Assembly (NCBI GenBank): GCA_024407725.1
Contig: JAKSVZ010000009.1
Span: forward strand, 1,668-33,667
Direction of reading: 5' to 3'
Length of the DNA: 32,000 nt
Source: Opitutales bacterium
Lineage (GTDB): Bacteria; Verrucomicrobiota; Verrucomicrobiia; Opitutales; UBA9783
Shown here: positions 21,085 to 32,000 of the stretch, one piece after another
How positions within the stretch are numbered: position 1 is the stretch's first letter
How the letters are laid out: each line of letters begins with the position of its first letter
Translations under genes and position numbers: made by a program
The notes under the pieces: model-generated
What the model was told of the DNA's origin: nothing
Databases searched by the model: none
What the model saw: the letters and a program-made list of their open reading frames with translations, nothing else

Positions 21085-21179
21085 CTTGACTTACATAGCC
21101 AAATAGGATATAAGTCTTTTGCTACCTGTAATCCTTATAGAATTAATTTTATTGTAATAAGAACGTAATAAAAGTCAAG
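21085..21179. repeat. convergent-promoter cassette u1 (95 bp)
   Basis: Bounded by AAAG-CTTGAC ... GTCAAG-GAAAAA. Plus end: TTGACT (21086-21091), 17-bp spacer, TATAAG (21109-21114). Minus end: TTGACT (rc of 21173-21178), 16-bp spacer, TACAAT (rc of 21151-21156). No ORF. Confidence 0.6.
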
Positions 21180-21227
21180 GAAAAATATACTTTAATCTCA
21201 CCGATAAAAAGCCAAGAGCATTTAAAA

Positions 21228-21324
21228 CTTGACAAAATAAAGTTTTATCTTACAATCACAATTAATGCATTTATTGAACATATGGCTCAATCTTATTTTA
21301 AAGATTGATACCATTAATGTCAAG
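21228..21324. repeat. convergent-promoter cassette u2 (97 bp)
   Basis: AAAA-CTTGAC ... GTCAAG-AAAAAA. Plus end: TTGACA (21229-21234), 16-bp spacer, TACAAT (21251-21256). Minus end: TTGACA (rc of 21318-21323), 17-bp spacer, TAAAAT (rc of 21295-21300). It abuts the hairpin at 21326-21354. Confidence 0.6.
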
Positions 21325-21354
21325 AAAAAAGCCTCACTTTTGGTAAGGCTTTTT
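21263..21354 (+). ncRNA. candidate ~90-nt small RNA from the u2 plus-strand promoter to the bidirectional terminator
   Basis: Predicted start about 7 nt after TACAAT. The end is the A-tract/stem/T-tract hairpin. No start codon or ORF. Purely predicted. Confidence 0.3.
21326..21354. terminator. bidirectional intrinsic terminator (gap 3' end, minus strand; u2 transcript, plus strand)
   Basis: AAAAAGCCT-cacttttggta-AGGCTTTTT: a 9-bp stem flanked by A5 and T5, 8 nt beyond the gap stop codon. Confidence 0.7.
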
Positions 21355-21361
21355 AAAACTT

Positions 21362-22390
21362 TTAGCAAAATTCAGCTAATTTCTGCAATAAATCGACGCA
21401 GCGATTGCTATAACCCCATTCGTTATCATACCAACTGACCAACTTAAAGAATCGGTCATTCAGTTCGATTCCCGAACCGGCATCAAAGATGGATGAATGC
21501 GTATCATGGATAAAGTCACTGGATACCACCTCATCCTCTGTATAGCCCAAAATACCCTTTAAAGCTCCATTGGATGCTGCTTTCATAGCCTCACAGATAG
21601 CTTTGTAAGACGTGGATTTTACGGTACGAACCGTCAAGTCAACAACCGAAACCGTTGGAGTAGGTACTCGGAAAGACATACCCGTTAATTTGCCCTTTAC
21701 AGCCGGCAAAACCAATCCTACCGCTTTTGCTGCTCCTGTGGTTGACGGAATAATATTGATTGCTGCGGTACGTCCCCCCTTCCAGTCCTTTTTCGAAGGA
21801 CCATCAACGGTTTTTTGAGTAGCGGTATAACTATGAACCGTCGTCATCAACCCTTCCTCAATGCCAAACTCATCTAAAACAACCTTGGTAATAGGCGCCA
21901 AACAGTTGGTGGTACAGGAAGCATTGGAGATTAATGTATCCGACGCTTTGAGTTCTTGATCATTGACCCCCATCACAATAGTACGAATCCGATCCCCTTT
22001 ACCCGGCGCTGTAATCAATACTTTCTTAGCTCCTGCCTTCAAATGACCTTCGGCTTTTTCATCCATCGTAAAGAGTCCTGTAGATTCAATCACCACATCA
22101 ACCCCCAAATCTTTCCAAGGTAACGCTGCCGGACCCTCTTTAACTGCCAAACAACGAATCTTCATTCCATTGACCTTCAAAGTATCCTCTCCCTCAGCTT
22201 CCACGGTTCCATTGAAACGACCTTGGATAGAATCATATTTCAACAAATAAGCTAAATTATCCGCTCCTACCAAATCATTGATAGCTACCACTTCGAATGC
22301 GTTCCCCAATAGTCCGCGTTCCGCTATCGCTCGAAATACCAAACGACCAATACGGCCAAATCCATTGATGCCAATTTTTATCTTTTTCAT
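21362..22390 (-). CDS. gap: glyceraldehyde-3-phosphate dehydrogenase
   Basis: [12 protein letters not shown] motif, active site [12 protein letters not shown], and WYDNEWGYS. The ORF track start at 22408 is a GTG; the ATG at 22390 gives [12 protein letters not shown]. Confidence 0.92.
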
Positions 22391-22619
22391 ATGAGCATAT
22401 TTTAGCACGTTCTATTAAAATCGTAAAGAATGCGAATAGATGTCTTAACCCTCATCCTACCCCATCGCTAAAAAGCATAAAGAGACTTAAAGGAACCACA
22501 AAGCACTCGCATTAGGAACCAAAACCTTAAGCCATCGCAAGCATTTCCCTGCTAAATTTAGTCCTAACACAACATCCTATAACTTAGTCGGACGCCTAAA
22601 AAAGATTGATGAAAACAGG

Positions 22620-22715
22620 CTTGACTTTTATCCTTATTAGGAATATAAATATATTCCTACTTTTGTGAATAGATTTGAATAATATTCTTATATAAGATCT
22701 TGTAAATAAGTCAAG
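22620..22715. repeat. convergent-promoter cassette u3 (96 bp)
   Basis: Plus end: TTGACT (22621-22626), 17-bp spacer, TATAAA (22644-22649). Minus end: TTGACT (rc of 22709-22714), 16-bp spacer, TATAAG (rc of 22687-22692). The interior resembles u9. The right flank is nearly identical to those of u10 and u11. Confidence 0.6.
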
Positions 22716-22751
22716 ATAAAAGCAAACCTGCAGGTACGCAGGTTGTTTTTT
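22656..22751 (+). ncRNA. candidate ~96-nt small RNA (u3 promoter to terminator)
   Basis: Near-consensus promoter, no ORF, and a 3' module CTTGTAAATAAGTCAAGATAAAAGCAAACCTGCAGGTACGCAGGTTGTTTTTT shared with u10 and u11. Predicted only. Confidence 0.35.
22725..22751. terminator. intrinsic terminator hairpin AACCTGC-aggtac-GCAGGTT + T-run
   Basis: 7-bp GC-rich stem followed by GTTTTTT on the plus strand. On the minus strand the same stem is followed by TGCTTTTATC, so it could also terminate the 22800-23756 ORF. Repeated at 31663-31690 and 31985-32000. Confidence 0.65.
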
Positions 22752-22799
22752 GTCAATGATTGATTCCACTGGTATCTGAAATAGAGCAGGATTTGTTCG

Positions 22800-30141: not shown

Positions 30142-31107
30142 ACCGAACGCCTGTTGAAAGAAATGCGTTAAGGTCAGGGCAACATTCAGGACGAACTGAG
30201 CATGGTAGGATTCCAACTGAAAGGTTTGGGCTAATTCATCAGTTTTGCCATGGGCATCACCCGCATGATTCCTCAACGAACCGACTCCGCGCACCGTAAA
30301 TGCCAACACTTGGCAAACGCTATTGGTGAGGCTGTCGGACAAACGATAAAAGCGTTCGCTTAAATCCGGAGCGGAATGCAAGGACTTATGGCATCGAATA
30401 AACGCCTGATATAACTTCGGCAACGGTTCACTTGCCACGCGCTCCAATTCCTTCGGCGGACAAGTCTTACTTAAAACCTGCTTTAGGACGCTTTCCAACA
30501 ACGTACGCGCTTGGGTTAAAACGGTATCGTAATCCCCCTGAATCAACGCTTGTTGGCCGCGCCGGATACTCCGGTCAATCGGACCGCTGGGGTATACTAT
30601 TGGGTCAACCCCATACGATTGGGATACCACAATCCATTGAAAGTTTTGAAATCCCCCATCGCTGGCTTGTGCCTGCAACGCACGATCGTATAAATACAAA
30701 ATAGCATTGATAGCCTTCAACACCCGATCGCAAACACCCTGATAAACCCGCTTGCTTTGTGTTAACAACTGAGGGCTTTGTAAATTCGCAAAGGGCGCGC
30801 TTGCTATAAAACGTTCAAAGCTAAAAAAGTAAGGCAATAAGGCTAAAACCTTGCCCTTATCCGCCGCCATCTTCAACACCCGTTTGCAATAACCATACGG
30901 GGTTTCTAAACCGGTGCAATTGCCCATGAATCCAAGCTGTTTACAGGCGTCATCCAACCCACGCTTATGAACCAACGGCAGTTGAATCGGCCAATCCGCT
31001 CCATCAATCGTGAGCATACCTAAAGGATACTTTTGTGGCACACCGGCCAAAATCGCCACAATACGCGGGTCACAAACAAATCGATTCTCAAAATTAAGCC
31101 CCTGCAT
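30079..31107 (-). CDS. abortive-infection family protein (Abi_C-like C-terminal domain)
   Basis: IQGDYDTVLTQARTLLESVLKQVL ... LPKLYQAF ... GVGSLRNHAGDAHGKTDE ... YHAQFVLNVALTLTHFF matches my recollection of the Abi_C (PF14355) pattern well. The N-terminal ~170 aa are unassigned. Confidence 0.6.
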   Translation of the reverse strand: MQGLNFENRFVCDPRIVAILAGVPQKYPLGMLTIDGADWPIQLPLVHKRGLDDACKQLGFMGNCTGLETPYGYCKRVLKMAADKGKVLALLPYFFSFERFIASAPFANLQSPQLLTQSKRVYQGVCDRVLKAINAILYLYDRALQAQASDGGFQNFQWIVVSQSYGVDPIVYPSGPIDRSIRRGQQALIQGDYDTVLTQARTLLESVLKQVLSKTCPPKELERVASEPLPKLYQAFIRCHKSLHSAPDLSERFYRLSDSLTNSVCQVLAFTVRGVGSLRNHAGDAHGKTDELAQTFQLESYHAQFVLNVALTLTHFFQQAFGLTQTHEHEVLIGNKQQGSGS

Positions 31108-31350
31108 GCAGAAATTGTAGGATTAAAATGACCCCCTGTCAATGAAAAATAAGAAACAAGCATGCAAGCCCTGCGCACACGCAAACAAGGCTAAAAAGGG
31201 CTAAAAATCAGCGTTTTTTACTAAAATTTTCGGTCAGCAAAAAGATACTCAACCTACGAAAGCCATTCCATCGGTAATACTTTCAGGTCATGATTCAACA
31301 CAACCAATACTATAAAAAGGAATTTACGATAAGCGCCCCTATTAAAAAGG

Positions 31351-31447
31351 CTTGACTTTTACCTTAAATAGAGGTAAAAGAATGTTCCTGCATTTGTTAA
31401 TAGATTCGAATATTATTTTTTTATATACAATCCCCTAAAAAGTCAAG
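31351..31447. repeat. convergent-promoter cassette u9 (97 bp)
   Basis: AAAAAGG-CTTGACTTTT ... AAAAGTCAAG-CAAAAA (11-bp inverted repeat). Plus end: TTGACT (31352-31357), 17-bp spacer, TAAAAG. Minus end: TTGACT (rc of 31441-31446), 15-bp spacer, TATAAA (suboptimal spacing). It contains a 9-bp hairpin CTTTTACCT/AGGTAAAAG. The interior is related to u3. Followed by a 12-bp bulged hairpin at 31465-31501. Confidence 0.55.
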
Positions 31448-31554
31448 CAAAAACCAAAACGAGATTGCAAAAGCTTCTGTAATCAGGTGGAAGTTTTGCA
31501 ACCCAAGATGGGTATCCTTCACCCTATTTTACCCTATAGGAGGAGCAAAAAACG

Positions 31555-31653
31555 CTTGACAAAGCTAGCAAATTTTAGATATTAAAAATAATTGCATTTT
31601 TCACAGCAGTGTTTACGAGGAAATTTATAATAAAACCTTGTAAATAAGTCAAG
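31555..31653. repeat. convergent-promoter cassette u10 (99 bp)
   Basis: AAAAAACG-CTTGAC ... GTCAAG-ATAAAAG. Plus end: TTGACA (31556-31561), 16-bp spacer, GATATT (31578-31583). Minus end: TTGACT (rc of 31647-31652), 17-bp spacer, TATAAA (rc of 31624-31629). Confidence 0.6.
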
Positions 31654-31690
31654 ATAAAAGTAAACCTGCAGGTACGCAGGTTGTTTTTTT
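31590..31690 (+). ncRNA. candidate ~100-nt small RNA (u10 promoter to terminator)
   Basis: A variable 5' part followed by the conserved module CCTTGTAAATAAGTCAAGATAAAAGTAAACCTGCAGGTACGCAGGTTGTTTTTTT. No ORF. Predicted only. Confidence 0.35.
31663..31690. terminator. intrinsic terminator, second copy of the AACCTGC/GCAGGTT hairpin + T7
   Basis: Identical stem-loop to 22725-22751, followed by GTTTTTTT. Confidence 0.65.
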
Positions 31691-31876
31691 GTCAACATTG
31701 ATTCCGCATCTGAAATACAACTTGAATAAACAGATACCCTTGCGCACGAAATTATGCAGGAATGGGTCTAAAAAATAGGTTATTTTGATTGGGGGATCTC
31801 AAAGTTGCCTTGTTATCGTCATTCGCAAAAAAGCACTGGTAGATAAAATTACCTAACGTAATGGAGCAAGAAAACG

Positions 31877-31975
31877 CTTGACAAAGCTATCAGTTTTTAG
31901 ATAATGCAACTATTGCATTTCTCGCAGAAAAATTTAAGCAAGTTTTTTATAATAAAACCTTGTAAATAAGTCAAG
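31877..31975. repeat. convergent-promoter cassette u11 (99 bp)
   Basis: Tandem copy of u10, 322 bp downstream. Plus end: TTGACA (31878-31883), 16-bp spacer, GATAAT (31900-31905). Minus end: TTGACT (rc of 31969-31974), 17-bp spacer, TATAAA (rc of 31946-31951). The hairpin restarts at 31985 and is cut by the window end. Confidence 0.6.
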
Positions 31976-32000
31976 ATAAAAGTAAACCTGCAGGTACGCA

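Follow-up and report, generated by a model that had tools for sequence, protein, structure and literature searches.

A multicopy family of fixed-length, core-variable cassettes with promoter-like facing ends in an Opitutales bacterium

What kind of non-coding element is repeated eleven times (once incompletely) in a short stretch of bacterial DNA, keeps its length and its ends, and yet hardly ever keeps its interior? The question is raised by a 32,000-nt stretch from an uncultured Opitutales bacterium of the Verrucomicrobiota, assembly GCA_024407725.1 (contig JAKSVZ010000009.1, positions 1,668-33,667, plus strand), referred to here as the window, and all copy counts apply to the window. A first-pass annotation made from the letters of this DNA had drawn attention to cassettes bounded by the inverted hexamers CTTGAC and GTCAAG, here numbered u1 to u11 (Table 1). 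It read their ends as near-consensus promoters placed face to face, and offered a small-RNA gene family, an insulator or interference device, a protein-bound site pair or an unusual miniature inverted-repeat transposable element (MITE) as possible identities. We found that the feature is both real and unusual.

An exact search for CTTGAC-N80-90-GTCAAG returned nine matches, all of them on the plus strand between 21085 and 31975, with N confined to 83-87. Dinucleotide-preserving shuffles lead one to expect 0.01 such pairs and none of 100 shuffles reached nine, which rules out a chance origin of the hexamer pairs and bears out the nine that had been reported. Direct reading supplies a tenth full copy, u6, with ATTGAC at its left end and GTCAAG at its right, and an eleventh, partial copy, u8, which consists of a right arm only and ends at 26948 with ATCAAG. 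A sequence model of the cassette also recovers both, placing u8 at 26863-26955. The full copies measure 95-99 bp, the orientation is identical in all cassettes and, as first described, A-rich flanks are present on both sides. Their interiors are unrelated except for the pairs u3/u9 and u10/u11, whose likeness had been seen before, and the u4 family. The u3 copy is additionally a chimera, with about 80 nt on the left resembling u9, and about 30 nt on the right together with the terminator resembling u10/u11. Window positions 1-21000 contain no cassette by exact search, direct reading or the sequence model, in agreement with the earlier account; every intergenic gap in these first 21 kb is about 120 bp or shorter.

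The ends themselves have the character of promoters. TTGAC is exact at 20 of the 21 cassette ends, the remaining one being the TTGATT of u8. At a spacer of 16-18 bp the best -10 score averages 2.3 bits, compared with -0.2 bits in composition-matched shuffled interiors, and none of 20000 resampled means reaches the observed value; the -10-like hexamers that had been described inside each end thus stand up statistically. When 20900-32000 is scanned for promoters, cassette ends occupy most of the top ranks, and the resulting list includes 15 of them, 13 with at least 10 of 12 matches. The left-arm motif AAAAAGCTTGNC is also found upstream of host tRNA genes, as AAAAAGCTTGCC for tRNA-Tyr and AAAAAGATTGAC for tRNA-Asp, and AAAAAGCTTGAC lies upstream of rplM in a related genus. 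The AAAAAG-CTTGAC context of the left ends appears, from these sequences, to be the strong-promoter design of this lineage. The cassette model, built from sequence only, also matches the reverse strand of each copy, with 10-16 bits, whereas arm-to-arm complementarity in 14 representative cassettes shows no excess over shuffled sequence (0.415 versus 0.420). Motif symmetry without arm complementarity means that the symmetry resides in recognition motifs and not in base pairing, and such two-fold symmetry is what opposite-strand promoters would predict and a hairpin-forming site would not. The centres of the two -35 boxes are 87-91 bp apart (8.3-8.7 helical turns), and the predicted starts, taken as 7 nt past each -10 and computed from the spacers, would lie 24-28 nt apart. 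With motif statistics, scan rank, symmetry, the motif shared with tRNA and ribosomal protein genes and conservation among strains all pointing the same way, there is good in silico support for reading the two ends as facing promoters of the sigma-70 type.

Promoter sequences in this lineage show two further features. The A-run in the left-promoter spacer varies between A6, A7 and A8 among strains and copies (L152 at 15688; L156 at 15676 and 15965; L160 at 8224, 17482 and 19827; L163 at 8749-8845). This variation shifts the -35/-10 spacing by 1-2 bp, and slipped-strand tuning of promoter strength is possible. In addition, promoter-like sites at gap (22399-22427, minus strand) and at AbiJ (31114-31142, minus strand) have -10 boxes that end about 7-10 nt before the ATG, a placement that suggests leaderless or near-leaderless mRNAs in this lineage.

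Comparison with contigs of the same species-level clade, retrieved via identical or near-identical proteins, shows where the cassettes reside. Strain L150/L151 (88-89% nucleotide identity) has zero cassettes at all four sites: the pfk-gap interval is 79 bp, gap abuts tRNA-Val, rpoN and sucC are about 84 bp apart and AbiJ is missing. Contig L144 (92-94% identity) is without segments 2 and 3 of Table 1. Other strains carry one cassette in the pfk-gap interval and one or two 99-bp cassettes near AbiJ, with the orientation and architecture seen in the window, lengths of 95-99 bp and different interiors. Each of the eleven copies thus lies within a strain-variable insertion, and four sites are involved. 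What was inserted or duplicated exceeds the cassette in size: about 245 bp at site 1 (the pfk-gap interval), and 186 bp for a u4-type module that comprises a hairpin, then the cassette, then 52 nt. Comparison of filled with empty sites at three loci showed no target duplication, and in one tandem duplication the join lies at CAAAAAAGCT microhomology. Taken together, the large units, the lack of target duplications and the microhomology argue for duplication and recombination between conserved arms and not for transposition. The site-1 cassette of L160 is also chimeric, with a u4-like right arm. Two short contigs, L166 and L203, end inside or at a cassette (L203 stops at about cassette position 33), and contigs L154 and L155 end about 480 bp past one; shared arms combined with variable cores probably break metagenome assemblies here.

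Variation within the cassette is concentrated in its centre. Across ten homologous pairs, positions 1-30 and 66-end differ by about 4% and positions 31-65 by 17% (Fisher test, 4e-12), so divergence in the 35-bp core, which lies between the two -10 boxes, runs at about four times the rate of the arms. Two pfk-gap alleles of 96 and 99 bp illustrate the pattern: their left arms are identical, their right arms 97% and their flanks 94-97% identical, and their cores 68% identical with indels. Forward alignment of such core alleles beats alignment to the reverse complement, which rules out inversion of the core and identifies them as diverged homologues. In the tandem copies of L156, 60 nt of downstream flank are identical (about 130 nt by alignment reading) and the cassettes differ at 8 of 70 positions; by direct reading, core differences include two G-C to A-U double changes that preserve a 7-bp hairpin. 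Cassette length nevertheless stays at 95-99 bp despite core change, and we infer selection on the promoters and the distance between them. Two known sources of variable sequence were rejected. A store of spacers like that of clustered regularly interspaced short palindromic repeats (CRISPR) does not fit, because an exact search of IMG/VR with three 22-nt cores found nothing and the alleles are diverged homologues, not replacements. Nor does a diversity-generating retroelement, since core differences are not adenine-specific and no reverse transcriptase lies in the window. Core complementarity to the rest of the window is nowhere significant.

Many cassettes are accompanied by intrinsic terminators. 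These lie directly 3' of u2, u3, u5, u8, u10 and u11 and 5' of u4, several of them bidirectional, and their positions mean that cassettes or small cassette clusters are bracketed by terminators. The earlier observation of terminators after several copies is thereby confirmed for u3, u5, u8 and u10, and by folding or direct reading for u2 and u11: the u2 terminator has an 11-nt loop beyond the limit of the terminator scan and rests on folding of the predicted RNA, and the u11 hairpin is cut by the window end and is assigned from the u10/u11 alignment and direct reading. A promoter-to-terminator layout within about 50-250 nt is present for u2, u3, u5, u10, u11 and for u7 with u8, and not directly for u1, u4, u6 and u9. 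On the plus strand, u2, u3, u5, u10 and u11 form units of about 140-145 bp in the order A-tract, cassette, A/U linker, hairpin and T-run. Three of the predicted plus-strand RNAs fold better than shuffled sequences (z = -5.2 for u2, -2.3 for u3 and -4.0 for u10). In the u4-type module, the predicted leftward RNA would enter the conserved hairpin 5' of an Abi gene. A small-RNA gene family, as the first-pass annotation had suggested, is plausible for about half of the copies, in which the promoter is followed by about 60 nt, an A/U linker and a strong terminator. For the u4 family, consensus folding gave 3 and 10 pairs without convincing covariation, and the proposed comparison with Rfam gave no family at gathering or E-value thresholds. 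No conserved or consistently placed small open reading frame (ORF) occurs in the cassettes; by direct reading u9 contains a single 18-codon ORF, which is lost in its homologue u3.

We tentatively favour, at somewhat below an even chance, a model in which each cassette is a compact transcription unit bounded by terminators, whose two convergent promoters exclude one another and give short 5'-overlapping RNAs. The left promoter (A-tract, (G)CTTGAC, 16-18 bp, -10) would fire rightwards and the right promoter (T-tract, CTTGACT, 16-17 bp, TAnAAT on the minus strand) leftwards. Because the predicted starts are only 24-28 nt apart, open complexes (from about -55 to +20) would overlap and, we infer, one polymerase at a time would occupy a cassette. 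Interference between close convergent promoters by occlusion, 'sitting duck' removal and collision is established for phage and synthetic pairs (PMC5001618), and the two promoters would compete through occlusion and 'sitting duck' interference. Each firing would yield a short RNA that leaves across the opposite promoter, and the first ~25 nt of one RNA would be the perfect complement of the first ~25 nt of the other. Terminators close outside most cassettes or clusters would limit transcripts to about 100-225 nt and block incoming transcription, allowing the units to act as self-contained small-RNA or antisense-RNA genes. For u2, u3, u5, u10 and u11, the plus-strand RNA would consist of a variable 5' end, a stem-loop, an A/U-rich linker and a strong terminator. 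Selection would act on nothing but the promoter motifs, the distances between them and total length, and the core could change quickly because the two RNAs would be complementary whatever its sequence. The cassettes would move with accessory DNA (Abi defence genes and variable intergenic inserts), spreading most plausibly by duplication and recombination between conserved arms. A more ambitious version of this model strikes us as quite unlikely. Here the promoter pair itself would be the working part of a new class of non-coding module, each unit giving a pair of RNAs with a unique, automatically complementary 5' 'barcode' of about 25 nt, and the family would diversify by arm recombination inside defence islands. 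The barcode might act as a specificity determinant, for example in self/non-self discrimination, in addiction to the linked Abi genes or in mutual control through RNase III; the module might instead be a heritable direction switch tuned by spacer homopolymer tracts.

Several observations count against the transcription-unit model. Several of the left -10 boxes are weak (AAAAAT, AATAAT, GATATT). Terminators are not found directly downstream of u1, u4, u6, u7 and u9, predicted RNA lengths range from about 100 to 225 nt, and an RNA structure common to the cassettes was not found, covariation being negligible. Leftward firing would in some cases run antisense to a core gene (rpoN for u7, pfk for the site-1 cassettes). 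The reason for the fixed length of 95-99 bp is not demonstrated. Finally, in two strain pairs the core has diverged more than the four-fold degenerate sites of neighbouring genes (17% versus 2%, p = 2e-4; 36% versus 6%, p = 9e-8), and absence of constraint alone would fail to explain this. In the other two of the four strain pairs the core is not faster than these sites, so change looks episodic; diversifying selection, mutagenesis in a permanently melted, colliding region and allele exchange are candidate causes.

Among the alternatives, a role at the level of DNA, in which the RNAs are irrelevant and the cassettes serve either as polymerase-occupied silencers or insulators or as outward promoters for accessory genes, is unlikely but has points in its favour. 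What is conserved is promoter motifs and spacing only, RNA sequence being variable, and the cassettes are confined to strain-variable AT-rich DNA beside Abi genes. Promoter-dense acquired DNA, such as the E. coli 'promoter islands', has already been proposed to exert silencing through polymerase interference (PMC7054387, PMC3661553), and u3, u4, u9 and the u4-type cassettes of other strains aim a promoter at gap, the Abi_C gene or AbiJ. However, promoter islands are irregular dense clusters and not regular fixed-length two-promoter units, gap and AbiJ have proximal promoters of their own, many cassettes aim at no gene or at the 3' end of one (site 1, u7 and the L160 copy at 19827), and the terminators right behind cassettes would halt outward transcription. 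Operators for a DNA-binding protein other than RNA polymerase, formed by the hexamers or by local palindromes such as ACTTATACC-N7-GGTATAAGT in the left arm, are highly improbable. The u4, site-1 and u9 families do have a strong palindrome of 9-11 bp that spans from the -35 to the -10 box and does not vary between strains, and conservation extends past the canonical -35 to a C at -36 and a G at -37. The palindromes are nevertheless not common to all cassettes, the GCTTGAC context recurs at ordinary host promoters, the -35 centres are unphased on the helix, no regulator gene is linked, and -10 enrichment at the correct spacing would be left unexplained. The protein-bound site pair of the first-pass annotation finds no support unless the protein is RNA polymerase.

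A mobile or recombination element, either a MITE-like transposon or a set of attC-like sites whose promoter likeness is secondary, is very unlikely. It would account for presence or absence at four sites among strains, for the flanking of the Abi_C gene by u3 and u4, and for the chimeric cassettes. GCTTGAC/GTCAAGC is moreover one mismatch from the attC core-site consensus RYYYAAC/GTTRRRY. Against the MITE option, which we reject, the terminal inverted repeat is merely 6-9 bp long (11 bp in u9), the junctions read lack target-site duplications, interiors are not conserved, and the units that moved exceed the cassette, with one duplication joined through microhomology. The window holds no integrase, transposase, recombinase or reverse transcriptase gene, core genes interrupt the arrays, and the variant ends ATTGAC and ATCAAG preserve TTGA, not pairing. 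An integron attC identity was rejected because the core GTT triplet is GTC, the seventh positions are unpaired in most copies, fold-back is not above composition, the DNA folds without a common long hairpin, and there is neither an integrase nor a contiguous array; a cruciform was rejected on the same arm complementarity and absence of a common long hairpin. That complementarity test, at shuffled level in 14 of 14 representative cassettes, also largely refutes a single-stranded-DNA hairpin promoter or origin (Frpo/ssi or sso) in which the arms pair to rebuild one -35/-10, a reading to which we now give hardly any credence. Its appeal lay in the resemblance of mirror-geometry promoters to an inverted repeat with conserved -35 and -10 boxes and in the pairing of terminal hexamers in several predicted folds, but arm spacer lengths are unmatched, strong local left-arm hairpins compete with fold-back, and there is no conjugative or rolling-circle context. 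Type I toxin-antitoxin loci typically have convergent promoters with 5' overlap, occur as multicopy tandem loci, vary between strains and diverge fast, features that the cassettes share, and the order of u4 right promoter, hairpin and Abi_C gene resembles the promoter, RNA, terminator and toxin of type III systems. Loci for a very small peptide plus an antisense RNA, or type III-like RNA antitoxins of the neighbouring Abi genes, are nonetheless barely credible here: small ORFs are neither common to the cassettes nor consistently placed, that of u9 does not survive in u3, tandem identical RNA repeats are lacking, and the pfk-gap and rpoN-sucC cassettes are a long way from any Abi gene.

Core genes (pfk, gap, tRNA-Val, ferredoxin, rpoN, sucCD, tRNA-Asp and prepilin peptidase) occupy the intervals separating the cassettes, along with two abortive-infection genes on the minus strand, one Abi_C/HEPN-like and one AbiJ-like. 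The cassette-bearing DNA is AT-rich and strain-variable, and the related contigs apparently come from rumen metagenomes. No AbiJ homologues were found outside the species cluster. The Abi_C gene is broken by a homopolymer, C8 here and C11 in L160 (~18665-18675), at the same Ile-Pro-Pro position, and in either strain the loss of a single C would give back the complete ORF, about 376 aa long; the gene is either a candidate phase-variable (contingency) defence gene or the product of a homopolymer sequencing error. An Eco47II-like restriction-modification system is inserted after sucD, beside tRNA-Asp, in L160 (13491-15280) and also in L163 and L164. This insertion and the island next to the tRNA-Val 3' end mark the region as a hotspot of defence-gene turnover. 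Elsewhere, 981-5730 (minus strand) carries three tandem paralogous ORFs of 504, 532 and 536 aa without a Pfam match, and a stretch of about 36 nt, CGCTCGTGCAATTGACATAAGCGCTTAAAAGCGTCC, is nearly identical at 1107 and 2666. Type III secretion-associated genes occur at 8224-8664 and 17901-19686 (CesT-like and SycN-like chaperones and TyeA); in a related genus (L145), a secretin and CesT are found nearby.

Table 1. Cassettes and associated features in the window; promoter elements, terminators and RNAs are predictions, and promoters are written as -35 box, spacer length and -10 box.
Feature	Coordinates	Strand	Details
Strain-variable segment 1, pfk-gap intergenic	20978-21361		79 bp in L150; 317-327 bp with one cassette in other strains
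Cassette u1, 95 bp	21085-21179		left (+) -35 21086-21091, -10 TATAAG 21109-21114; right (-) -35 21178-21173, -10 TACAAT 21156-21151
Cassette u2, 97 bp	21228-21324		left TTGACA-16-TACAAT 21229-21256; right (-) TTGACA-17-TAAAAT 21323-21295; each 11/12 matches
A-tract, hairpin and T-run directly 3' of u2	21325-21362		would stop the u2 plus-strand RNA (~97 nt) and the opposing gap mRNA
Strain-variable segment 2, abutting the tRNA-Val 3' end	22429-24873		missing from L144, L150, L152, L156 and L160
Cassette u3, 96 bp	22620-22715		left -10 TATAAA 22644-22649; right (-) -10 TATAAG 22692-22687
A/U-rich linker and bidirectional terminator behind u3	22716-22752		hairpin 22725-22744
Abi_C (HEPN-like) abortive-infection gene	22800-23935	-	between u3 and u4; interrupted by C8 tract (G8 on the plus strand at 23858-23865)
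Hairpin between T/A runs just 5' of u4	24003-24019		terminator-like on both strands; kept with the u4-type module in other strains
Cassette u4, 99 bp	24035-24133		belongs to the 186-bp u4-type module, which L152, L156 and L160 share
Cassette u5, 97 bp	24250-24346		right (-) TTGACT-17-TACGAT
A-rich linker and terminator behind u5	24347-24384	+	hairpin 24361-24375, T6
Cassette u6, 95 bp	24549-24643		ATTGAC left end; right (-) TTGACT-16-TACAAT
Strain-variable segment 3, rpoN-sucC	26700-27007		~26 bp instead in L144; rpoN-sucC gap 368 bp here versus ~85 bp in the other strains
Cassette u7, 97 bp	26719-26815		left TTGACA-17-TATCAT; right (-) TTGACT-16-TAAAAT
u8, right arm only	26863-26978		plus-strand terminator hairpin 26897-26915; minus-strand promoter TTGATT-17-TACAAT 26947-26919; bidirectional terminator 26958-26972
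AbiJ-like abortive-infection gene	30079-31107	-	own promoter 31142-31114; missing from cassette-free strain
Cassette u9, 97 bp	31351-31447		
Cassette u10, 99 bp	31555-31653		predicted plus-strand RNA z = -4.0
Linker and bidirectional terminator behind u10	31654-31693		hairpin 31663-31682
Cassette u11, 99 bp	31877-31975		u10-type linker and terminator begins 31976, cut by window end

How does such a family compare with described systems? In IS10/Tn10 the facing promoters pIN and pOUT (RNA-IN/RNA-OUT) give transcripts that overlap by about 36 nt at their 5' ends. Like the cassettes, IS10 pIN-pOUT, hok/sok and symE/symR have facing promoters within about 100 bp, 5' overlap and one short terminated RNA, the 24-28 nt overlap of the cassettes being predicted from geometry only. 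These pairs, however, regulate one protein-coding gene, once per element, whereas the cassettes have no consistent ORF in either predicted RNA, at least ten copies per 11 kb, two promoters that are both near-consensus, and a fixed length with interiors unrelated between copies. The switch promoters of phage 186 (pR/pL) and P2 are likewise close and convergent, with interference expected (PMC5001618), but they are single-copy, of unequal strength, repressor-controlled and drive operons, and the cassettes come without attached regulators or operons. E. coli promoter islands, proposed to trap polymerase and so to silence (PMC3661553, PMC7054387), share the setting of AT-rich acquired DNA with promoter-like sites on both strands and differ in being irregular, 300-1100 bp long and without a fixed architecture, where the cassettes are discrete two-promoter units with conserved ends and flanking terminators. 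The Qrr, LhrC and csRNA families consist of tandem short promoter-to-terminator intergenic units, a layout seen in u2, u3, u5, u10 and u11. Known small-RNA families keep the RNA body or seed and vary their promoters, whereas the cassettes keep their promoters, have a hypervariable RNA 5' part and, unlike those families, contain an internal antisense promoter in each unit. Both attC sites and MITEs resemble the cassettes in having short inverted ends, a size of about 100 bp, unrelated interiors (attC) and variable gene content, but the cassettes do not fold back, do not fit the core-site consensus and lack an integrase, target duplications and long terminal repeats.

Strict-pattern scans of IMG/VR, of one genome for each of 185,579 species and of Joint Genome Institute (JGI) metagenomes gave single matches per contig in about the number expected by chance, and one such match lies in a relative, UBA3869. 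The cassette model found no matches in two related genera, phage and plasmid BLAST searches gave no match, and the literature on face-to-face or convergent promoters yielded single-locus systems only. The scans also turned up other sequences. An unrelated array on L183 (JGI Ga0182027_10360425, 1374-1613) contains 4.5 tandem 53-bp units, CTTGAC...GGTCAAG with AAAAG linkers, which are GC-rich and show 87% matches. Redundant viral and metagenome contigs with a 98-99 bp CTTGAC...GTCAAG unit recurred (L060/L184/L196, L033/L193 and related). In one family of these the unit is a single strong promoter, TTGACA-17-TATACT, followed by a GC-rich hairpin, and in the other a long imperfect palindrome; the recurrent units are probably unrelated to the cassettes and were picked by the search pattern.

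Within these searches the parts are known (promoters, antisense pairs and terminators), and a multicopy, fixed-geometry, core-variable cassette has not been described. Known convergent promoters and antisense pairs are one-off devices; here there is a multicopy family in which core turnover is faster than that of silent sites in two of four strain pairs. Even if the promoters prove inactive, the pattern would still need explaining because chance and simple transposition are excluded. The cassettes would also account for the breaks that metagenome assemblies of the rumen Opitutales lineage show in this region. Should the promoters prove active, the family would offer a natural series of matched convergent-promoter constructs for the study of polymerase interference, and would be a candidate source of hypervariable small RNAs beside abortive-infection genes.

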